Shown here: in pieces, positions 12,276 through 51,667 of the stretch | Layout of the letters: each line of letters starts with the position of its first letter | How positions within the stretch are numbered: position 1 is the first letter of the stretch | From: an uncultured Gammaproteobacteria bacterium | GTDB taxonomy: Bacteria > Patescibacteriota > Patescibacteriia > Patescibacteriales > UBA12465 | Assembly (NCBI GenBank): GCA_964431235.1 | Contig: CAYSJA010000030.1 | Span: 1,774 to 65,773 of the forward strand | Reading direction: 5' to 3' | DNA length: 64,000 nt | Translations under genes and position numbers: made by a program | Notes under the pieces: generated by a model | Told to the model about the DNA's origin: nothing | Database searches by the model: none | Seen by the model: only the letters and a program-made list of their open reading frames with translations

Positions 12276-14744
12276 TTATTTTGTTATTTGCGTCCGCCTA
12301 GTAATTTCAGCTTCCACTAGTCTGACACTTCGACCATATTTCAAACGAGAAAGAGAACGGATACGATCAGCTATCTCTTCCCTCTTTACTCCCATAAGAG
12401 GCCAAATGGTTCGTAAAGAGAAAGGGCGAGCAGCAGTATTATCTATTAAAAGTTTAATATAAGCAGTCCCTTTGTCAATGTTTATAAGATCATATTCATT
12501 AAAAACCGGACTAAATTCTTTTACTAGAAATTCAGCGTCTTCTGAACCGACTTTGAAATTTATAATTGTGCCAATATTACCAAAAACAGCGTCTTTTATT
12601 TCTGTATTATTATTTTTAACAAGCTGACCAATATACTGATGGGCAACAACCAGATTTAGAGCGTATTTTCTAGCTTCAGACAGTATCTGGCAAATGGAAT
12701 TGGTGGTGAAATTCTGAAATTCATCAATATAAAGATAAAAATCTTTCCTTTTTTTTGCCGGCAAATCAGTACGGGATAAAGCACCCATTAAAATTTTTCC
12801 TACTAAGATCATCCCTAAAAGATAAGCATTCATTTCCCCAACTGTTCCCTTGGGCAAATCAACCAATAAAATTTTCTGCTTATCCATAATTTCACGCAGA
12901 TTAAAAGCACTTTTTTGCTGCCCTATTATCGGCCGCATCATATCATTAGAAATAAAGGAAGTTAATTTAGAGGTAATATAAGGAACAATATTAGCTAAAG
13001 CCGCTTCACCACCAGCTTTTTCCGCTTCTTTAGTCCAAAAATCAACTACTGTTTTATTCTTACACCTTTCTAATTTTAAACGCCGAAAATTGACATCAGC
13101 TAAAACTTTAGGGATTTCCATTAAAGTAGAACCAGAAGCAGGATCCTCCATTACCAATAACATTGCGTTTCTCATATATTGTTCAAACATAGGCCCGCCG
13201 GTTGACTTTAAATCATAAAGTTTATCAAAAATTCCTATCATCTCATTAATAACAAAACTTTTTTGTTCTGGATAGCGCGAATCGTATTCTAATAAATTAA
13301 GCGCTAGCGGTCTTTCTAAATCAGCTGGTGAAAAAATAATTACATCTTCCGATCTTTCCGGCGGAATACGCTCTAAAATATCTTGGATTAAATCACCATG
13401 GGGATCCAAAACGCAAACCCCTTCACCATTTTGAATATCCTGAATTGCCATATTAGCTAAAAGTACAGATTTACCAACACCAGACTTACCAACTACATAG
13501 GTGTGGCGTCTTCTATCATCTCTTTTAATCTTAATTTCTTTTTTAAACCCGCGATAAAAATTATACCCTAAAATAATTCCCTCTTCCGGAGTTTCAGCTG
13601 GAGCCGGAGCTGATTTGGCTGTTAGCCATAAAATATTAGGAGTTTCCACACTTCGCAAAGGTAAATGGAAAATACTGGCTAATTCTTCGCTATTTAAAAG
13701 AAAACTATTCTTTTCCCGAAAATGGCGATAAATAAAATCTTTTATAATCTTATCTTGATTCTTTTTCTTAGCTCTGGAGAAAGAATTACCATAAGAAAAA
13801 TTATTATATTCAGAAAAAGCGCTGGCAATATTTTCTAAATGTCTATCGGCTTTTTCTTTGCTTTGAGAAAAACTAAGCACCCGTAAATTAACATCAAGAC
13901 CAGCTTTTAAATTTTTTTCTTCTATTTTTTTAAGCATCTCTTCTTCAATCGCGCTAAGGCGCCTTTCTGGCTTTGACTCTAAATTTTGACCTTTATTTTT
14001 TGTAGGTGGATTTATAAAAGAAAAGGCTTTATCTAAAATATTTGATTTCAAACCCTCAGAAACAGAATTCTTTTGCTGTATCTGAAACACTTTTTTTCTC
14101 ACTGCTCCATGCCAAGAACTCCTAGCACTGCGTACTAAATATTGTAAGGACAAACTCTCTCCTTTTTCCAATTTAGATAAAACATTGATTAAAGAATTCA
14201 TGGGATCGACTTCCATTTCTTGATAAGTTTTTAAAGGAAAAATAAAACTTTTACTAGTTTTTAAATAAGCGGCTGACACTTGACCCTGAACACCAAAAGA
14301 ATTATAGTCTTCTATTTCCTCAATTGAAGCGGCTGGATACTGAGCATGAATTTGTTGCTCTAAATAACGAAAACTTTCAGAAGCGCAAGCAAAATAAAAA
14401 ACAATTTTTTTAGAATCAGCCACTATTTCAAAAGAAACATGATCTTGACGTCCCAGCAACCAAGCTTTGAAACCGTGTTGAGCTTTTAATCCACCAATAG
14501 CCGCAAATATGGCTTCGCCTTTGGCTATTTCTTCTCTTAGCTCTTGGACAGAATTATTATTATTTTTATCTTCAGGTTTTTCTTTAGGAATACGGACAGA
14601 AAAGACATGGTGATTGAAATAACGGCGTCTAGAAAAAACTATCCTAAACAAACGTAAAATTATAAAAATAGCTATCACTACCGCTAAAACGGCAAACAAA
14701 TAAAGCCAAATAGTATTAAAATCTGTTATCTCAAAAGTCAACAT
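12276..14744 (-). CDS. membrane-anchored type IV coupling protein-like ATPase (VirD4/TraG/TraD family, or DUF87/HerA-like)
   Basis: N-terminal TM helix; Walker A VVGKSGVGKS; VLDPHGDL resembles the coupling-protein DPKGE motif; Walker B LYIDEFQNF; VVAHQ sensor motif. Confidence 0.6.
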   Translation of the reverse strand: MLTFEITDFNTIWLYLFAVLAVVIAIFIILRLFRIVFSRRRYFNHHVFSVRIPKEKPEDKNNNNSVQELREEIAKGEAIFAAIGGLKAQHGFKAWLLGRQDHVSFEIVADSKKIVFYFACASESFRYLEQQIHAQYPAASIEEIEDYNSFGVQGQVSAAYLKTSKSFIFPLKTYQEMEVDPMNSLINVLSKLEKGESLSLQYLVRSARSSWHGAVRKKVFQIQQKNSVSEGLKSNILDKAFSFINPPTKNKGQNLESKPERRLSAIEEEMLKKIEEKNLKAGLDVNLRVLSFSQSKEKADRHLENIASAFSEYNNFSYGNSFSRAKKKNQDKIIKDFIYRHFREKNSFLLNSEELASIFHLPLRSVETPNILWLTAKSAPAPAETPEEGIILGYNFYRGFKKEIKIKRDDRRRHTYVVGKSGVGKSVLLANMAIQDIQNGEGVCVLDPHGDLIQDILERIPPERSEDVIIFSPADLERPLALNLLEYDSRYPEQKSFVINEMIGIFDKLYDLKSTGGPMFEQYMRNAMLLVMEDPASGSTLMEIPKVLADVNFRRLKLERCKNKTVVDFWTKEAEKAGGEAALANIVPYITSKLTSFISNDMMRPIIGQQKSAFNLREIMDKQKILLVDLPKGTVGEMNAYLLGMILVGKILMGALSRTDLPAKKRKDFYLYIDEFQNFTTNSICQILSEARKYALNLVVAHQYIGQLVKNNNTEIKDAVFGNIGTIINFKVGSEDAEFLVKEFSPVFNEYDLINIDKGTAYIKLLIDNTAARPFSLRTIWPLMGVKREEIADRIRSLSRLKYGRSVRLVEAEITRRTQITK

Positions 14745-26900: not shown

Positions 26901-27302
26901 TTAGTCTTGATCTGATTTCTTTGTTTTTTTAACTCTGGTCTCATAATCCAAAATTGCTTTTTTTAAACCTTGAATCGCCATTACCGAACAGTGGATCTTT
27001 TGCTGGGGTAATCCTCCTAAATCATCGGTAATTTTCTGCCAAGGGTACTTTTTCGCTTGATCAAGAGTCATACCTTTTACTTTTTCTGTCATTACTGAGG
27101 CAGTAGCAATATTTGAAGCGCAACCAAAGGATAAGAATTTGACATCTTTTATTCTACCTTTTTCTACTTTTAAAAAAAAATCTAATTGATCACCACAAAC
27201 CATATTACCTATCCGGGCATAACCATCTGGTTTTTTAATCTTACCAATATTTCTTGGCTTTAGAAAATGATCTAAAGTTTTTTTAGTATAATTTAAAGAC
27301 AT
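26901..27302 (-). CDS. Fe-S cluster assembly scaffold (NifU/IscU family)
   Basis: GDQLDFFLKV...FLSFGCASNIATAS...HCSVMA, all three scaffold cysteines present. Confidence 0.8.
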   Translation of the reverse strand: MSLNYTKKTLDHFLKPRNIGKIKKPDGYARIGNMVCGDQLDFFLKVEKGRIKDVKFLSFGCASNIATASVMTEKVKGMTLDQAKKYPWQKITDDLGGLPQQKIHCSVMAIQGLKKAILDYETRVKKTKKSDQD

Positions 27303-27448
27303 ATATTAAAATTTATTTTTCGTTTTATTTAATAATTCTACTACAAAGAATAAATAAAATCTAGCAAATCTAGTACCTACATACATATTGACATAATTGT
27401 AAAAATATATTAAAATAAACAAAAATAGAACTTTAAAAATTATGTACC

Positions 27449-27844
27449 ATGAAAAAAAGATATAAAGATCTTTTAAAACAGCTTATAGCAATCTCTTTTC
27501 TCTCTTTTCTTTTAAGTTATGTTATTAGTTTAATAGGTGTTATTTTAACAGCTTTCAGTCTAGGATACGACTATGATGAGTTAATTAAACCTTTAAAAAG
27601 AAAAAGGAATTGGCTCACTGTTAAAATATTCTTAGCAATGGAAACTGGTTTTTTAGGAAGCTCACTACTTCATGCCGGACTTTTTCCTGGCATAAGTACT
27701 CTTATTACTGTTATAATCGGTATAACAGTTGGTTTTGTTTTTTTTGTTTTTGGATGCTTATTAGAAAAATATAAAAAAAAGAAAAGAAAAGCTACCAATA
27801 CAAAAAAATTTAACTGGTACTACTTAAAAATGCTAATGACTTAA
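27449..27844 (+). CDS. hypothetical small membrane protein
   Basis: 3-4 predicted TM helices, Lys-rich C-terminus; on the opposite strand between nifU-like and nifS-like genes. Confidence 0.4.
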   Translation: MKKRYKDLLKQLIAISFLSFLLSYVISLIGVILTAFSLGYDYDELIKPLKRKRNWLTVKIFLAMETGFLGSSLLHAGLFPGISTLITVIIGITVGFVFFVFGCLLEKYKKKKRKATNTKKFNWYYLKMLMT

Positions 27845-27901
27845 AAATCAATTTAAAAAAATTGGTTTTTTTTCGTTTAATAAGAATTTTTGCTGATAAA
27901 C

Positions 27902-29056
27902 TTATTCTATAGGAGAAAAATGGCGCAATCTTTTCACTGTTTGTTTTAAAGCCTTAACAGTATAATCTATTTCTTTTTTAGTATTGAAGCGCCCTAAAGA
28001 AAAACGAATATTGCTATTTAAATAATTTTTTTCTAATCCCATGGCTTTCAAAACATGAGAAGCACGCAAATTAGAGGCTGAACAAGCAGATCCGGTAGAA
28101 ACACATATTCCTTTTTGCGATAAATCAATTAGAATCGCTTCACCTTCTACATTGCTAAACATAATATTTAAATTGGCCGGAATGCGGTTTTTGAAACTGC
28201 CGTTTAATTTAATTTTTGGAATTTCTTTCTTTAACTGCTGCCATAAATAATCTTTTAATTCTTTTATCTTTTTCAAATATTCGTTTCTTTCTTGATAAGC
28301 TAAAAATAGAGCTTCGCTAAATCCAATTATTCCCGGCATATTGCAAGTGCCAGAACGCAAATAATTTTCTTGGCCTCCACCAACAATAATAGGGTTAATC
28401 TTTATATTTGGATTTATATAAGCTAAACCTACACCTTTAGGGCCATAAAGTTTATGAGCGGACAAACTAATAAAGTCAAGGTTCATTTTTTTGATATCAA
28501 GTTTAAGATAAGGAACGGCTTGGACAGCGTCGCTATAAAAATAAGCACCGTTTTTATGAGCTATCTCGGCTAAAGATTCTATATCTTGAATTATACCGAT
28601 TTCATTATTAACAGCCATAACTGAAACTAAAATCGTATCCTTCCCTATTATTTCTCTTAAACTATTCGGAGTAACCAAACCATTTTTATCAACCGGTAAA
28701 TAATCAATTTTAAATCCCTCTTGAGATAATTTTTTAACAGTTTCCCTAACACAGGAATGCTCTATTTCTGATATTATTATCCTATTTTTTTTCTCAGTCT
28801 TATTAGCTAAAGCCACACCTCTAATTATCATATTACTGGCCTCGGTGGCACTTGAAGTAAAAACAACCCCTTTTTTATCTGCTCCTAAAATTTTAGCTAT
28901 CCTTTCTCTAGCTAGTTCTAAATCAGAAAAAGCCTCCTGCCCTAAAGTATGAATGGAAGCTGGGTTACCGTATTTTTCACTAAAATAAGGTTGCATTTTT
29001 TTTAATACACGAGGATCGAGTTTTGTTGTAGCGGCATTATCTAAATATACTATCAT
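27902..29056 (-). CDS. cysteine desulfurase (NifS/IscS family)
   Basis: MIVYLDNAATTKLDP, PLP-lysine region SLSAHKLYGPKG, catalytic GSACSA. Confidence 0.85.
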   Translation of the reverse strand: MIVYLDNAATTKLDPRVLKKMQPYFSEKYGNPASIHTLGQEAFSDLELARERIAKILGADKKGVVFTSSATEASNMIIRGVALANKTEKKNRIIISEIEHSCVRETVKKLSQEGFKIDYLPVDKNGLVTPNSLREIIGKDTILVSVMAVNNEIGIIQDIESLAEIAHKNGAYFYSDAVQAVPYLKLDIKKMNLDFISLSAHKLYGPKGVGLAYINPNIKINPIIVGGGQENYLRSGTCNMPGIIGFSEALFLAYQERNEYLKKIKELKDYLWQQLKKEIPKIKLNGSFKNRIPANLNIMFSNVEGEAILIDLSQKGICVSTGSACSASNLRASHVLKAMGLEKNYLNSNIRFSLGRFNTKKEIDYTVKALKQTVKRLRHFSPIE

Positions 29057-31187: not shown

Positions 31188-32891
31188 TTATTTTTTTCTT
31201 TTAGCAAAAAATTTAGTATGAATAAGCTTAGTTGTCATTTTTTTGTCTTTTACCCATTTATAGTAATTTAACATTACCTGATTTTCATGGGCTCGACGCA
31301 TCTTCTTATCAAGATCTATCTTATACAAACCTTGGCTACGTCTCTTCTTAATCTCAAAAGTAGTAGGAAAAGGTTGTCCACCACCGCCTAGGCAACCGCC
31401 AGGACAAGCCATAACTTCAATATAATGATAATTTTTTAATTTAGTAATAATCTTGGGAAAATTACCAATACCGCTTACAACTGCTACTTTTAGTTTTTTT
31501 CTACCTAAATTAACTGTTGCCTCTTTTATTCCTTTTAACCCTCTTACTTCTTTAAATTCTAATTTAGGCAAAATAGTTCTCTCTTTTTTATTTTTATTAT
31601 ATAAAACAACTGCTGAGCGTAGAGCTGATTCCATTACTCCGCCGGAAGTGCCATAAATGGCAGCCGCCCCAGAACCATCGTTAAATAAAGAATTTGTTTC
31701 GCTATCTTTAAGTGTCGCTAGATCAATCCCCTGCTTTTTCAGCATAAAAGCAAATTCTCTTACCGTCAAGACATAATCTACTAAGCGCCTATTTTTATAA
31801 AATAGTTCTTTTCGTCCAGCCTCGTGTTTTTTGGCAGTACAAGGAACAATTGAAAGTATTTTTATCTTTTTGTCGCTTAATTTATTTTTCTTAGCAAAAT
31901 AGCTTTTTATAGCTCCGGCACTATGAATATGAGGTGAACGAGAGGTAGTAAGACAAGGAATGAGTTCAGGGTGATAAAATTCAACATAAGCAACCCAAGA
32001 TGGACAACAAGAAGTCATCATTGGTAAAATCGCTTTCTTGCTATCCAACCTTTCTAAAAGTTCTTCAGCCTCTACCATAGTGGTAATGTCAGCACCAAAA
32101 TTTATATCAAAAACATAAGAAAAACCGATTTTTTTTAAAGCTGTGTTTATTTTTTTAGCACAGTTTGTGCCATAGGGTAAACCAAATTCTTCGCCTAAAG
32201 AAACTCTAACAGCCGGTGCAAACTGAGCTACCATAATATTATCCTTATTTTCAAGGGCTTTTTCTACTTCTAGCCATTGAGTTTGCTCTTGAGCAGCTGC
32301 TACCGGACAAACATTAGTACATTGGCCACAATAAATACAAGCTTTATTCTTATCAGCTACTGGTTTAACCTCCTGTTTGTAGCCATTACCGTCAAAATGC
32401 AAAAATTCAATTCCTTGCAAAGCACAAGCTTCTATGCAATTACCACAATCAATACATTGGCTACCATCTATTTCTACGGCATTGGAAAATTTATAAGTTT
32501 TACGATTATATTTTCTATCAGTAAATTCAGTTATTTTAATATTATAATCACGCGCCAAGTTCAATAAACCACAATTAAAACGCAAAGTGCAATCTGCACA
32601 TTTTTCAATATGAGAAGCAAATAGGAGCTCAATATTCAAACGCCTCATTTTTCTAACTTTCTCTGATTCTGTTAATATTTCCATCCCCTCCCTTACTAAT
32701 GTAGAATCAGCCGCTTGCAATTTCCTTTCCCCTTTTATTTCTATTAAAGATATTCTATCTCCGCCTTTATTTTTTAAATCCGGATGGTAGGAAAGAAAAG
32801 GAATTTTGATATTATTTTTAAGCGCTACTTCTAATATAGTTTCACCTGGCTTAACTATTAATTTATTATTATTAATTTTAATGTGAATCAT
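31188..32891 (-). CDS. hydA: [FeFe]-hydrogenase catalytic subunit HydA
   Basis: H-cluster motifs L1 MMTSCCPSW, L2 VPCTAKKHE, L3 EVMACPGGCLGGGGQP; two 4Fe-4S motifs CIDCGNCIEAC and CIYCGQCTNVCP; His-ligated cluster region HIEKCADC...NCG; no Cys in the first ~95 residues. Confidence 0.85.
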   Translation of the reverse strand: MIHIKINNNKLIVKPGETILEVALKNNIKIPFLSYHPDLKNKGGDRISLIEIKGERKLQAADSTLVREGMEILTESEKVRKMRRLNIELLFASHIEKCADCTLRFNCGLLNLARDYNIKITEFTDRKYNRKTYKFSNAVEIDGSQCIDCGNCIEACALQGIEFLHFDGNGYKQEVKPVADKNKACIYCGQCTNVCPVAAAQEQTQWLEVEKALENKDNIMVAQFAPAVRVSLGEEFGLPYGTNCAKKINTALKKIGFSYVFDINFGADITTMVEAEELLERLDSKKAILPMMTSCCPSWVAYVEFYHPELIPCLTTSRSPHIHSAGAIKSYFAKKNKLSDKKIKILSIVPCTAKKHEAGRKELFYKNRRLVDYVLTVREFAFMLKKQGIDLATLKDSETNSLFNDGSGAAAIYGTSGGVMESALRSAVVLYNKNKKERTILPKLEFKEVRGLKGIKEATVNLGRKKLKVAVVSGIGNFPKIITKLKNYHYIEVMACPGGCLGGGGQPFPTTFEIKKRRSQGLYKIDLDKKMRRAHENQVMLNYYKWVKDKKMTTKLIHTKFFAKRKK

Positions 32892-32910
32892 TAAATATAA
32901 TTTCTATTTT

Positions 32911-33975
32911 TTATTTTTGTTTATAAATATTTTCTAAATAACTTTTTACAGTCTGGGACAGAGATGATCCTAAAGAACAAAAACTAGCCTGCTCTAAATT
33001 ATCAAGTAAATCAATGAATTTTTTCTTATTAATTTCTCCCTTTTTCAGCATCTCCCTAAGACGATAGCTTCCTTCCCGACAAGGTGTACATAAACCACAG
33101 CTTTCTGTTTCATAATATTTAAGCCAATAATTAAGCAACTTATCCTTATCAGTCTTCTCTTTATTAAAAACCATAATAAAACCAGAGCCTTCAATTGGCG
33201 CTAAAAGCTGATTTTTGTCCAATACTTCGCCGCAAACCTCTCCGCCAAGTATAGCAAAAAAATCAAAATCGGGATAATTATCAGTCGCTCGTAAAATATC
33301 TTCAGCACTAGCATCAGCTGGTAAAGAATAGACGCCCTTATATTTAACCGCGCCCGAAATTGTATATAAACGCTTGCCTTGATATTTATTCTTTGAAATC
33401 AGGCTAACACTATACAAAGTTTCTACATTATTAACTAAAGTTGGTAAATTATTAATTCCCTTTTCGGCCGGAAAAGGCGGTCTTTTTTTAGGCTCCGCCC
33501 TATTTCCTTCTATTATATTCAAAACCGCGCTCTCTTCGCCACCAATATAGCTTGGACTTAACGGTTTGATAAAAAATTTAATTTTTTTAGCTAAAAATAA
33601 ATATTTTTTTTCTGATTTTAAAACGGCAAACAGAGATTTACTGTATAAATTATAGTATTTTCTATTGATATAAAAATAAACTGTCTTTATTTTATTCTTC
33701 CCCAAAAAATTATAAGCCAAATTTATACCATCTATCACTGTTGGTGCTTCATTTTTAAGCAAAAAAGCGTCCTTCTTTACCCCGGGCTCTCCTTCGGCAG
33801 CATTAACCACTATATAACCTCCGGAAACCCTTCTTAAAGCACTTTTAACTATTAGCCATTTTTTAGCAGTTGGAAAATTAGCTCCACCTCGCCCGACTAA
33901 ACCAGCATTTTCAATCTTTTCAATTATACTTTGACTTTTCATGCCTTTAACGCGCCGTCCAGCCGCCATCAACAT
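32911..33975 (-). CDS. NuoF-like NAD(P)H-binding flavoprotein (hydrogenase HydB-like, truncated)
   Basis: GRGGANFPTAKKW, FMN-site NAAEGEPGVKKD, 4Fe-4S N3 motif ESCGLCTPCREG. It is 354 aa, with no N-terminal thioredoxin-like or C-terminal ferredoxin extensions. Confidence 0.75.
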   Translation of the reverse strand: MLMAAGRRVKGMKSQSIIEKIENAGLVGRGGANFPTAKKWLIVKSALRRVSGGYIVVNAAEGEPGVKKDAFLLKNEAPTVIDGINLAYNFLGKNKIKTVYFYINRKYYNLYSKSLFAVLKSEKKYLFLAKKIKFFIKPLSPSYIGGEESAVLNIIEGNRAEPKKRPPFPAEKGINNLPTLVNNVETLYSVSLISKNKYQGKRLYTISGAVKYKGVYSLPADASAEDILRATDNYPDFDFFAILGGEVCGEVLDKNQLLAPIEGSGFIMVFNKEKTDKDKLLNYWLKYYETESCGLCTPCREGSYRLREMLKKGEINKKKFIDLLDNLEQASFCSLGSSLSQTVKSYLENIYKQK

Positions 33976-34733: not shown

Positions 34734-35747
34734 TTATTTTATAAATTTAGATATATAAACAGCCAGCTCAACTAAACGATTGGAATATCCCCATTCATTA
34801 TCGTACCAGGATACTACTTTTAATAAATCGCCACCTATAAGTTTGGTGGAAGGTAAATCAATAATGGTACTATGAGAATTACCAACTATATCAGAAGAAA
34901 CTATCTCTTCATTACAGGCCTCTAAAATTCCTTTTAATTTTCCGCTAGCCGCTTGAGAAAAAACTTTATTAACTGCTTCCTTAGTGGTTTTTTTCTTAAG
35001 CAGATAAACAGCATCGCATAAAGAACCAACCAGGGTAGGAACGCGCATCGCTAAACCGTCAAAGTTATTTTTTAAACTAGGAATAACTTCTGAGGTGGCT
35101 ATAGCCGCACCGGTAGTGGTAGGTACGATATTCAAAGCCGCTGCCCGACCACGACGCTTATCTTTATTAGGACCATCAACTAAATTCTGGCCAGCGGTAT
35201 AAGAATGAATAGTGGTCATTAATGCTTTTTTAATACCAAAACGCTTTTTAATAAGTTCTGTTGCTGGCGCCAAACAATTAGTAGTACAAGAAGCGCAAGA
35301 AACTAAATGATCTGATTTTCTAATCTTTTTTTCGTTAACTCCTAAAACTATTGTTTTTATTTCTTTCCCTTTAGCCGGTGCTGATAGCACCACTTTTTTA
35401 GCCCCGGCTAATAAATGGGCACTAAGAGCTTCTTTATCACGAAATATACCAGTACACTCTAGAACTAAATCAACCTTTAATTTTTTCCAGGGTAAATCTT
35501 TTGGATTTTTATTAGAAAATACCGGGATTCTCTTCTTACCCACAATAATAGAATTTTTGGTGTGGCTTACTTTTTTATCATAAATACCATAGGCGGAATC
35601 AAATTTTAAGAGATGTGCTAAAATTTCAGTATCAGCCAAATCATTAATCGCTACTATGTTGATATTAAAAAAACTATCGTTTATGATTTTAAAAGCGCTT
35701 CGGCCAATGCGGCCAAAACCATTGATAGCTAAATTTATTTTTTTCAT
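34734..35747 (-). CDS. gap: type I glyceraldehyde-3-phosphate dehydrogenase
   Basis: INGFGRIGR and active-site ASCTTNCLAP. Confidence 0.9.
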   Translation of the reverse strand: MKKINLAINGFGRIGRSAFKIINDSFFNINIVAINDLADTEILAHLLKFDSAYGIYDKKVSHTKNSIIVGKKRIPVFSNKNPKDLPWKKLKVDLVLECTGIFRDKEALSAHLLAGAKKVVLSAPAKGKEIKTIVLGVNEKKIRKSDHLVSCASCTTNCLAPATELIKKRFGIKKALMTTIHSYTAGQNLVDGPNKDKRRGRAAALNIVPTTTGAAIATSEVIPSLKNNFDGLAMRVPTLVGSLCDAVYLLKKKTTKEAVNKVFSQAASGKLKGILEACNEEIVSSDIVGNSHSTIIDLPSTKLIGGDLLKVVSWYDNEWGYSNRLVELAVYISKFIK

Positions 35748-35890
35748 AAATTGAAATTTTTAAACTATTAAAAATAATTAATCTATAAATTAATTTATAT
35801 TAATATTATAACATAATTTAAGTTATGTGAGAAAATTTAAAAAATCACCCTTGATTATTGGATGATTTTTTATATCCTTATCTATATTCT

Positions 35891-50221: not shown

Positions 50222-51667
50222 TTAAGTAAAAGGGAGGTTTTCTGGAGGCGAAGCCTTTTTTTGAGGGACATCGTCTGTTATCTTAGAATCGTTTTTTTCC
50301 ACAAAAAAATTCTCGTTATTTTTATTATCATTTTTAAAAAAACTATCGGGAATTGGCGTCAATTCTGAATCTAGAGGTAAAGAAAAAGGGGCATCCGCCT
50401 TTTTACCCTGAGTTTTTTGTATTAAAGACGCCTTAACACTGCCCTCTAAAGGAAAATGCCATAAAGTTGCCAATTCTTCTATATTAAATATGCGAGGCGA
50501 TAAACCTTGACTGTTAGATCTTTTGACATAAGCTTGAAAAATTCTGTTTTTCTTTCTCTGTAAACGTGGTTCCCGCCAAAAATAAGCTGTCCTGGTCATA
50601 GTTTTTTTAACATCGGGTTTTAGATTATTTAAATCTAAAGCGGCAAACTGCTTCATAAAGCCAACAATACCATTAGCGACCTTGGCCTTATTCATAATTT
50701 CTTTTTGGGACACATACACCATTCTTATTTTAGCGGTAAAAGCTAATTTACTGGCTTTAAGACTAATACCTTCTAATTTCTTTTGTTCTGAAGGAGTTAA
50801 ATCTAGCATAGTTTTTATCTTCTCTTCTTTTTCCTTATTTTCAATATCGCCCCAAATGCTATAAATAACTTCACTTAATTCGCCCAACCACTCCATTAGT
50901 TGCATAAAAAACCCTTTTTTAGCTTTTGATTTTCTCTCCAGAATCTTATCAACTTCTTTTTCTACATCTTTAACCCAATCAAAACCAATCGGGGTAACAA
51001 TAAATTGTAGCCATAGCTGCTCGCCTTGACGTAAAGAACCACATAAATCCATTAAACTAGCCATCGGATCCTTAAATTGTGTTTCTTCAGGTCCAATTTG
51101 ATGTTCAAAATCACGATAACACTTAATTGGATACATCCAAGGAGATGCTTGGGTAAACTCTACGCCCCAAATATCATATTCTTCATCCGGATATTTTTGC
51201 GCTACCGTTTCTGTATAGTCGTCAACTTCGGAAATTTCTGCATCAGGGTACTGGGAATAGACAGAAGATTCAATTAAATTCCTATATTCAGCCGGGGTTC
51301 TAATTAAAAATTGGGTATAACCCTCCAAGCTGACAACCTCATAGCTAAAAGATTTCTGAAATTTGCCCTCAAACCATGTTTCAAAAAAATTTTCTGTACC
51401 ATGGGCGCCGGCTAGATAAGTAAACATGTTTTCCACTGCCTTAGGTGTCTGTTCATTACCCTTGGGGATATCAATCGCTAAAAGTATATTTTTATGGGTA
51501 GCCGCCCATTTATTCCTTAACCAATAAAGATAGACTTGGAGCACTCCCCAAATAAAAAAGATCCCGATTATCAACCAACCAAAATTACCAATAAAGGACC
51601 AAAACATCTCATCAGGTGGCAAACTAAAAAATTTTTCTATACCGGCAGTATTTATAACTATATCCAT
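50222..51667 (-). CDS. hypothetical membrane protein
   Basis: Two N-terminal TM helices then a ~400 aa domain with no recognised motifs. Confidence 0.4.
   Translation of the reverse strand: MDIVINTAGIEKFFSLPPDEMFWSFIGNFGWLIIGIFFIWGVLQVYLYWLRNKWAATHKNILLAIDIPKGNEQTPKAVENMFTYLAGAHGTENFFETWFEGKFQKSFSYEVVSLEGYTQFLIRTPAEYRNLIESSVYSQYPDAEISEVDDYTETVAQKYPDEEYDIWGVEFTQASPWMYPIKCYRDFEHQIGPEETQFKDPMASLMDLCGSLRQGEQLWLQFIVTPIGFDWVKDVEKEVDKILERKSKAKKGFFMQLMEWLGELSEVIYSIWGDIENKEKEEKIKTMLDLTPSEQKKLEGISLKASKLAFTAKIRMVYVSQKEIMNKAKVANGIVGFMKQFAALDLNNLKPDVKKTMTRTAYFWREPRLQRKKNRIFQAYVKRSNSQGLSPRIFNIEELATLWHFPLEGSVKASLIQKTQGKKADAPFSLPLDSELTPIPDSFFKNDNKNNENFFVEKNDSKITDDVPQKKASPPENLPFT

Follow-up and report, generated by a model that had tools for sequence, protein, structure and literature searches.

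The DNA considered here is a 64,000-nucleotide (nt) stretch of contig CAYSJA010000030.1 (hereafter, at its full length, the window), and the subject is a pair of adjoining minus-strand genes within it: hydA, for the catalytic subunit of an [FeFe] hydrogenase, and a gene for a short NuoF-like flavoprotein, which we call NuoF-lite. Together, they probably specify a minimal hydrogenase linked to NAD(H). The pair belongs to a minus-strand gene run with very short gaps that spans 29.7–38.3 kb of the window, the run order being S2, EF-Ts, PSP1, GAPDH, SDR, NuoF-like, hydA, CCA-adding enzyme, PPIase, NifS, and NifU. Around the hydrogenase module, Pfam tables covering nearly the whole window (~626–63862) list housekeeping genes only. 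An initial annotation, made from the letters of the sequence alone, had described a minimal two-gene module with (i) a HydA that looked catalytically competent, its N-terminal domain kept but the [2Fe-2S] ligands lost, (ii) a flavoprotein stripped down to the NuoF core, (iii) no NuoE/HydC gene in the window, and (iv) an adjoining SDR and GAPDH suggestive of fermentative NAD(P)H recycling. These four observations stand, while the start of the flavoprotein gene and the standing of the two-gene arrangement had to be revised.

HydA has the domain order of the CpI-like M3 architecture (CpI being the monomeric enzyme of Clostridium pasteurianum), with Pfam matches to Fe_hyd_lg_C (2.9e-83), Fer2_4 (residues 1–76, 5.4e-12), 4Fe-4S dicluster domains, NADH-G_4Fe-4S_3, and Fe_hyd_SSU. 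Classification by profile models, which the initial annotation had proposed as a check, places the protein in group A of the [FeFe] hydrogenases (TIGR02512, 431.5 bits versus a cutoff of 405.95). Its best NCBIfam model is NF040763 ("NADH-dependent [FeFe] hydrogenase, group A6"), at 592.6 bits and below the cutoff of 765, with the clostridial ferredoxin hydrogenase model behind it at 481 bits. The closest solved relatives are T. kivui HydA1 (8a6t_A, 421 bits) and A. woodii (7q4v_A, 408 bits), followed by CpI (357 bits). Aligned to CpI, HydA keeps all 12 ligands of FS4C (H94, C98, C101, and C107) and of FS4A/B (eight cysteines), as well as H-cluster ligands C296, C351, C496, and C500, and the FS4C ligands are invariant in the best 120 HydA homologs and in every related locus. 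The H-cluster motifs read TSCCP (C295/C296), PCTAKKHE (C351, K354), and MACPGGCLGGGGQP (C496, C500), and the residues of proton transfer or cofactor contact are likewise retained (E274, E277, R281, the proton-relay C295, K354, and M494). CpI S319 corresponds to T315, and CpI M353 to a Val that is the commonest residue at that column (85 of 120 homologs). Judged by sequence, HydA looks catalytically competent.

The departure from the M3 architecture lies at the N terminus, where the [2Fe-2S] domain is kept but all four of its cysteines are gone. The FS2 ligands C34, C46, C49, and C62 of CpI are replaced by S34, D45, S48, and D62; no cysteine precedes residue 98 anywhere in the protein. An AlphaFold2 (AF2) model of HydA has a mean predicted local distance difference test score (pLDDT) of 83 and a predicted template modeling score (pTM) of 0.84. 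Within the vestigial domain, pLDDT is 90–94 for residues 1–30, 69–73 for residues 31–50, and 88–93 for residues 51–80, so that the fold is confident except in the former cluster loop.

NuoF-lite has Complex1_51K and NADH_4Fe-4S as its only Pfam domains, and has neither a NuoE-like domain, an N-terminal [2Fe-2S] domain, nor C-terminal ferredoxin domains. Its best sequence match is Aquifex NuoF (153 bits), aligned to residues 48–408 of the 418-amino-acid (aa) chain; relative to NuoF, it lacks ~47 residues at the N terminus as well as four loops. The protein nevertheless has the flavin mononucleotide (FMN)- and NADH-binding fold and the four-cysteine motif of cluster N3, retaining GRGG, EGEPG, YIGGEE, PPFP...NNVET, and SCGxCxxC...C (the C-x2-C-x2-C...C of N3). 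The four N3 cysteines are invariant in an alignment of 59 NuoF-lite sequences and form the sole conserved cysteine motif there. The AF2 monomer (pLDDT 91, pTM 0.89) gives Foldseek query-normalized TM-scores of 0.81–0.86 to HydB, NfnB, HoxF, and NuoF chains. The start codon is most likely the ATG at 33942, 4 nt past the SDR stop, which yields 343 aa; the start at 33975 given by the initial annotation is disfavored because it overlaps the SDR gene and because the homologs have a median length of 342 aa.

Table 1. Coordinates of the hydrogenase module, its functional sites, and its upstream neighbors in the window
Feature	Position	Strand	Basis
hydA, [FeFe] hydrogenase catalytic subunit, 567 aa	31188..32891	-	Pfam, NCBIfam
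Vestigial ferredoxin-like Fer2_4 domain, HydA residues 1-80	32652..32891	-	Pfam, CpI alignment
FS4C site, His/Cys3 [4Fe-4S]: H94, C98, C101, C107	32571..32612	-	CpI alignment
FS4B/FS4A ferredoxin-type [4Fe-4S] motifs: C146, C149, C152, C156 and C185, C188, C191, C195	32307..32456	-	
H-cluster domain	31380..32237	-	Pfam Fe_hyd_lg_C, residues 219-504
Small-subunit-like C-terminal tail	31203..31355	-	Pfam Fe_hyd_SSU, residues 513-563, E = 2.7e-07
NuoF-lite (hydB-like) flavoprotein, 343 aa	32911..33942	-	Pfam; open frame extends to 33975
N3-type [4Fe-4S] ligands of NuoF-lite: C282, C285, C288, C322 (343-aa numbering)	32977..33099	-	
Classical SDR oxidoreductase, 245 aa	33947..34684	-	Pfam adh_short_C2 2.1e-75
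GAPDH, NADH-producing glycolysis step	34734..35747	-	Pfam Gp_dh_N and Gp_dh_C
Promoter-like site TTCTCA-17 nt-TATAAT with extended TG	35805..35833	-	Consensus scan; weak evidence

Neither a NuoE/HydC-like gene nor a gene for HydE, HydF, or HydG appears in the Pfam tables of the window. Over 759 kb of related loci plus the window, a tblastn search with E. coli NuoE gave no match at E <= 1, whereas the positive control, E. coli NuoF, gave 36 matches across the same loci. A motif scan of the 1,529 open reading frames (ORFs) of these loci for NuoE (Cx4Cx30-40Cx3C) found none, and scans of the same ORFs for hydF (CxHx40-60HCxxC) and for hydE and hydG (radical-SAM CxxxCxxC) returned a single match, which is RlmN.

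To place the module in a wider context, we compared it with its homologs. The hyd region, from GAPDH to the CCA gene, is base-for-base identical in four independent Joint Genome Institute (JGI) metagenome assemblies, one SDR codon excepted (contigs of <=92 kb, in records with names starting ML8 and MLSed, which probably stand for Mono Lake). The best 120 HydA homologs are 57–100% identical, and those with a named source come from Patescibacteria, Falkowbacteria, or Saccharimonadales. The best 120 NuoF-lite homologs are all 268–376 aa long (median 342) and have the same two Pfam domains, two of them carrying SLBB in addition. A scan of GTDB species genomes for hydA yielded 31 true relatives, one of them, with FS2 intact, on a closed Falkowbacteria chromosome of 977 kb (CP066698.1). 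The gene order from S2 to NifU is conserved in relatives, with the SDR present in some, and the GAPDH-(SDR)-NuoF-lite-HydA synteny is kept in ~30 Patescibacteria loci. GAPDH, the first gene of the conserved block, lies upstream of NuoF-lite and HydA, with one exception, wherever the locus extends far enough; NuoF-lite is immediately 5′ of HydA in every locus with upstream sequence, L038 excepted. Over ~30 loci spanning 42–100% identity, the two genes are separated by 4–39 nt or by a membrane ORF alone. The NuoE-less two-gene arrangement is therefore the family norm across Patescibacteria: an equivalent of NuoE and its cluster N1a is missing near all family modules examined, and the equivalent of N1b (FS2) is additionally missing in the window clade. 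The description of a minimal two-gene module thus holds for the window but not as a peculiarity of it. Public records give the module a generic annotation only. Many of the metagenome-assembled genome records in GTDB with the Patescibacteria-type locus (L009, L014, L015, L018, L021, and others) are titled "uncultured Gammaproteobacteria bacterium," which looks like a placeholder or mislabel because the synteny and sequence identity of the locus are of the Patescibacteria type.

Because many relatives carry a third gene, the two-gene form is best seen as a reduced derivative. Of the 35 loci with both nuoF-lite and hydA, 17 have a conserved multi-pass membrane ORF of 244–267 aa separating the two (L005:9234-9989, L037:9210-9974, L011:9201-10004, and 14 more); its product lacks a cysteine motif, and its sole Pfam match, to UPF0259, is sub-threshold. 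The window carries a 19-nt gap (32892-32910) at this place, and tblastn for a homolog of this ORF in the 64-kb window returned nothing better than E = 0.18. Mapped on the tree, the distribution of the ORF points to a loss in the window lineage. By description, its product may resemble "hyd6TM," a neighbor of group A hydrogenases in archaea, and could serve as a membrane anchor for the enzyme. In a more distant Patescibacteria subclade, a TM1266-like ORF of 80–87 aa stands directly 3′ of hydA (L038:8958-9221, L027:11691-11939, L034:8359-8607, L031:5598-5846, and 10 others), with 37.6 bits against a cutoff of 60.8 for TIGR03959 ("iron-only hydrogenase system regulator") and a weak match to CPF_0552. 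It is absent from the window clade. With no FS2, no membrane ORF, and no TM1266-like gene, the window copy is the most reduced form.

The absence of the FS2 ligands is far more restricted than that of NuoE. The four FS2 columns read CCCC in 113 of the 120 best HydA clusters and SDSD, ADSD, SDSE, or SDAE in the remaining 7. The cysteine-less loci are the window lineage, L005/L006, L012, L030, and the very divergent L036 (ADAE); contigs with an FS2-less hydA include JAQWDY010000004, JARRBY010000003, and CAYQEI010000001. When the N-terminal domain is left out, a neighbor-joining tree groups the window, L005, L012, and L030 as one clade, sister to FS2-intact loci, and both groups fall inside the SDR-containing subgroup; the placement of L036 is uncertain because of its long branch. 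Since most relatives still have the four cysteines, the loss of FS2 is a separate event, derived, clade specific, and later than the two-gene arrangement. A search of 1.84 billion representative proteins agrees with this: 109 of the 150 best HydA matches have the N-terminal domain and 106 of those 109 read CCCC, the exceptions being the L036 type and two "YSCS" proteins (the window clade sits inside a cluster represented by a CCCC protein and is hence not counted). Ligand loss with retention of the domain is rare, then, but not unique. A word-indexed search with the 119 N-terminal residues of HydA for more cysteine-less domains gave one irrelevant match only.

The cluster-less domain itself does not appear to be drifting freely. 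Its identity is 0.56–0.66 within the FS2-less clade, compared with 0.62–0.68 for FS2-intact pairs of matched overall divergence. The ratio of nonsynonymous to synonymous substitution rates (dN/dS) is ~0.12 for the vestigial domain of L012/L030 and 0.26 for that of L001/L005, versus 0.09 and 0.13 for the rest of HydA, although these values are rough because dS is saturated. By these comparisons, the vestigial domain is under purifying selection. In every locus of the FS2-less clade, NuoF-lite keeps all four N3 cysteines, and its identity to the window copy drops in step with that of neighboring genes, with no decay. No compensating new cysteine was found in HydA or NuoF-lite of this clade in the alignment of loci.

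Several further substitutions were observed in these proteins. HydA columns 432 and 440 (~31572-31598, minus strand) are Cys in 72–79% of FS2-intact loci and non-Cys throughout the FS2-less clade, so that these two cysteines disappeared together with the FS2 ligands; the pair might have formed a surface metal site or a disulfide. In NuoF-lite, the Cys of the FMN-site motif YICGEE of NuoF is Gly at window residue 134 (343-aa numbering, YIGGEE, ~33541-33543), Gly also in L005, L012, and L030, and Ala in L036. It is kept in the FS2-intact sister clade (L007, L009, L011, and L037) and replaced by Ser, Ala, or Gly in the more distant FS2-intact loci L016, L018, L031, and L034. At L036:8213-11566 (CAYQEI010000001.1), HydA is 44% and NuoF-lite 42% identical to the window proteins, with neighbors at 50–80%; this HydA, at 521 aa, retains little of the C-terminal tail, carries Ala in place of the proton-relay Cys (CpI C299), and scores under the TIGR02512 cutoff. 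It may be decaying or changing function, and its lineage illustrates how an FS2-less module can degenerate further. An independent loss of FS2 ligands, to YSCS, occurs in a 583-aa HydA (P0280/P0398, P0307; L047:4236-7752) present on >170 contigs, where hydA adjoins genes for a fumarate-reductase-like flavoprotein (FAD_binding_2 and Succ_DH_flav_C) and a small Fer4 protein and not NuoF.

How does such a pair compare with characterized enzymes? Losey et al. separate bifurcating β subunits, which have A/E-x-M at the NADH site, F at the FMN site, and GGPSG, from non-bifurcating ones, which have no extra Fe-S domains, no GGPSG, T/S at position "232," K/S/A at "234," and Y at "367" (PMC7311640). With the positions assigned through motifs homologous to those of E. 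coli NuoF and not by alignment to T. maritima HydB, NuoF-lite has the non-bifurcating K at "234" (EPGVKKD versus E. coli EPGTYKD) and the Y in YIGGEE; it reads V-K-K and GGEVCG, and the GGPSG, A/E-x-M, and F signatures of bifurcating HydB are missing. The bifurcating HydABC/BfuABC enzymes (T. maritima 7p5h, T. kivui 8a6t, and A. woodii 7q4v) offer the nearest HydA sequences, their HydB core superposes on NuoF-lite with a query-normalized TM-score of ~0.85, and the same chain from FMN through an N3-type cluster to HydA is expected. Unlike them, the window has no HydC, no N-terminal [2Fe-2S] or C-terminal 2x[4Fe-4S] of HydB, and no A1 cluster in HydA. The Bfu family requires the extra Fe-S clusters of BfuB (IPR017896) (PMC9304861). 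Because an extra-cluster HydB, a BfuC/HydC (NuoE-like, IPR002023, searched in the window and the 759 kb of loci), and the bifurcation residues that define this family and group A3 are all missing, the pair cannot be a Bfu-type bifurcating enzyme as defined (PMC9304861). Relative to the group A6 type (S. wolfei Hyd1ABC and S. aciditrophicus HydAB), NuoF-lite has the β-subunit signature except at "232," while the NuoE/HydC-like module is missing from the window and loci and the HydA score lies under the NF040763 cutoff.

The closest characterized system is HydAB of S. aciditrophicus (PMC7311640), which shares with the window pair two structural genes, a NuoF-type β subunit without the ferredoxin-like clusters of bifurcation, and the non-bifurcating K plus Y signature, and which interconverts NADH and H2 without ferredoxin, as predicted for the window pair. 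The initial annotation had taken NADH-dependent and bifurcating [FeFe] hydrogenases to be normally HydABC trimers; this two-subunit NADH-dependent enzyme was already known, but its 66-kDa HydB has a HydC/NuoE-like [2Fe-2S] domain fused to the NuoF core (PMC7311640). The 343-aa partner in the window has no such domain, and its HydA no [2Fe-2S] cluster; identity with the S. aciditrophicus enzyme was rejected on the fused domain. The remaining comparisons are each partial. CpI matches HydA in domain order, length, and the FS4C, FS4B, FS4A, and H-cluster ligands but differs in having FS2 and no flavoprotein partner. NuoF-lite and the N-terminal half of HydA correspond to the NuoF core and the NuoG N terminus of the complex I NADH module, which differs in having NuoE with N1a and a quinone-site end where the window chain ends in the H-cluster. 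The group A loci of DPANN archaea with "hyd6TM" also belong to genome-reduced, likely symbiotic anaerobes, mostly without hydEFG, and have a 4–6-helix membrane protein beside the hydrogenase genes that resembles the ~250-aa ORF of the relatives of the window module in the Candidate Phyla Radiation (CPR) (Greening et al. 2024, PMC11216029). However, the description of the archaeal A3 loci is of HydABC trimers that include HydC (PMC11216029), and the window has no membrane ORF. No earlier description of a CPR module of HydA and NuoF only was found in the literature, most subscription-journal papers being outside coverage. What appears to be new is an NADH-linked group A [FeFe] hydrogenase without an N1a equivalent and, in the window clade, without an N1b equivalent.

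With moderate confidence, we read the gene pair as a minimal, non-bifurcating, NAD(H)-linked [FeFe] hydrogenase typical of Patescibacteria. We infer that the two proteins form a complex, with the electron path, use of NADH, and direction outlined here. NuoF-lite would oxidize NADH at FMN and hand single electrons to its N3-type [4Fe-4S] cluster while docked on the N-terminal ferredoxin-like domain of HydA, as NuoF docks on NuoG and HydB on HydA. In most relatives, the electron would next reach the [2Fe-2S] cluster FS2 of HydA (equivalent to A1 and N1b); in the window lineage, the cluster-less domain would survive as a docking scaffold only, and because FS2 is gone, a direct hop from N3 to FS4B (the counterpart of complex I N4) would be required. 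From FS4B, electrons would pass through FS4A to the H-cluster, where protons would be reduced to H2. The different wiring that the initial annotation suspected is thus plausible, by analogy with studied enzymes: (i) in non-bifurcating homologs, which have no clusters B2–B5, the N3-type cluster (B1) reaches the A subunit (Schut et al., PMC9304861); (ii) in T. maritima HydABC, a chain of four clusters, B2, A1, A2, and A3, joins FMN to the H-cluster (PMC9499530), where A1 is taken here to be the N-terminal [2Fe-2S] of HydA that is absent from the window enzyme; and (iii) E. coli complex I stays active when N1b is destroyed or fails to assemble, N3 then passing electrons straight to N4 over an edge-to-edge distance of 14.9 Å, with ~tenfold slower intramolecular transfer (PMC10175503).

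As to its physiological role, the conserved GAPDH linkage suggests that the pair would reoxidize glycolytic NADH during fermentation, with the electrons leaving as H2. NADH, and not NADPH, is the likely substrate judging by the GEE motif of NuoF-lite (E. coli NuoF E183, a residue with a role in specificity), an Asp after the second β-strand of the SDR, and the "IND" motif of GAPDH. The E0′ values are ~-320 mV for NADH and -414 mV for H2, and NADH-driven H2 production therefore needs low H2, kept low by consumers. S. aciditrophicus HydAB made H2 from NADH up to partial pressures of 2.2–40.2 Pa (PMC7311640).

The same thermodynamics make NAD+ reduction by H2 the favorable direction, and the reaction direction cannot be read from sequence. 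The two-subunit enzyme might run as an uptake hydrogenase that reduces NAD+ with H2 from neighbors and feeds, for example, the adjoining SDR, which could use the NADH; S. aciditrophicus HydAB works in both directions (PMC7311640). This we consider unlikely, as the conserved linkage to an NADH-producing GAPDH fits a fermenter in need of an NADH sink and the Pfam tables list no respiratory or carbon-fixation genes in the window that would call for extra reductant.

A rather improbable alternative is that HydA acts as a ferredoxin-dependent, CpI-like monomer, with NuoF-lite merely co-located or serving as a non-docking NADH:ferredoxin-type shuttle, and with the loss of FS2 marking the uncoupling of the two. 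FS4C, a proposed entry site for ferredoxin in CpI (PMC9499530), is intact in HydA, whereas the cluster through which a NuoF-type partner canonically feeds electrons is gone, and one relative (L038) has HydA without an adjoining NuoF-lite. Against such uncoupling, the tight adjacency of the two genes holds in ~30 loci, the N3 cysteines remain invariant in the very clade that lost FS2, HydA is nearer to NuoF-partnered HydAs than to CpI, and the Pfam tables of the window list no ferredoxin or PFOR gene. The loss of FS2 need not uncouple anything, given that E. coli complex I without N1b stays coupled (PMC10175503).

It is more doubtful still that the module is a nonfunctional or decaying relic, unmatured without hydEFG, in which the losses of the FS2 cysteines and the membrane gene reflect decay in a shrinking genome. 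The window lineage has intact frames, all 17 remaining cluster ligands, and the proton path, its HydA diverges no faster than the adjoining housekeeping genes, and the dN/dS values (~0.1–0.26) are low, even though the window module is the most reduced version and the FS2-less L036 evolves fast, has lost its proton-relay Cys, and falls below the group A cutoff. Maturase genes were found neither in the window nor in 759 kb of related loci, but most [FeFe]-hydrogenase-bearing archaea also have no hydEFG, and their enzymes are active once supplied with the cofactor (PMC11216029). Finally, for an assembly or truncation artifact of a conventional hydABC operon, the broken-HydABC alternative of the initial annotation, no supporting point was found, and it can be dismissed given the identical hyd region in four independent assemblies, the same architecture in ~30 other genomes including CP066698.1, and the uniform length of the best 120 NuoF-lite homologs.

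To our knowledge, every solved or characterized relative pairs NuoF with a NuoE-like module; the other NuoF-type NADH modules known to us (complex I, HoxEFU, FdsBG, HydABC, NfnABC, and Hnd) all have a NuoE-like partner or domain. This precedent weighs against a two-protein NADH-linked hydrogenase, as do four findings of our own: (i) the absence of hydE, hydF, and hydG from the window and from all locus flanks, by which maturation is not explained by nearby genes; (ii) the score of NuoF-lite with the NuoF equivalog model TIGR01959, 190.9 bits and so far below the cutoff of 558.65 that its properties may differ from those of NuoF; (iii) the V at position "232," which fits neither class of Losey et al.; and (iv) the HydA of L038 without an adjoining NuoF-lite. 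A bolder and more tentative suggestion is that the pair could be the smallest NADH:H+ oxidoreductase known, two proteins totaling ~910 aa with NADH input without N1a and N1b equivalents and maybe matured without canonical HydEFG.

Among the neighboring genes, the SDR is restricted to the locus subgroup that includes the window and scores 250.9 bits against a cutoff of 215 with NCBIfam NF005559, the "glucose 1-dehydrogenase" subfamily. The promoter-like site sits in a 143-nt gap upstream of GAPDH, with the downstream genes spaced 4–49 nt apart. NifU and NifS (26901-29056), a minimal Fe-S assembly pair, lie 2–3 genes downstream of hydA in conserved synteny; a small membrane ORF between NifS and NifU (27449-27844, plus strand) is 131, 125, or 68 aa long among near-identical assemblies of the population. 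Elsewhere in the window are two DUF8128 proteins (12276-14744 and 50222-51667, minus strand), one of them with faint matches resembling TrwB, the type IV secretion system (T4SS) coupling protein.

These results have consequences for annotation as well as for bioenergetics. Classifiers that call any HydA beside a NuoF-like gene "group A3, bifurcating" would mislabel this family because every bifurcation-defining feature is missing. For applications, the ~910-aa pair would, if active, have the appeal of an NADH hydrogenase that needs no ferredoxin, as a compact scaffold for NADH-driven H2 production. The family would represent a natural NuoF-type NADH module without NuoE, and in the window clade also without the N1b equivalent, and so bears on the long-debated roles of N1a and N1b. 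If our reading is true, it would amount to a natural experiment in which N1a is dispensable in strict anaerobes and N1b is bypassed by a hop of ~15 Å. CPR bacteria (Patescibacteria) are thought to be obligate fermenters whose NADH balancing is only partly understood. A GAPDH-linked module of this kind across the CPR would, if true, give these bacteria a direct NADH-to-H2 valve and underlie a dependence on partner organisms that is based on H2.

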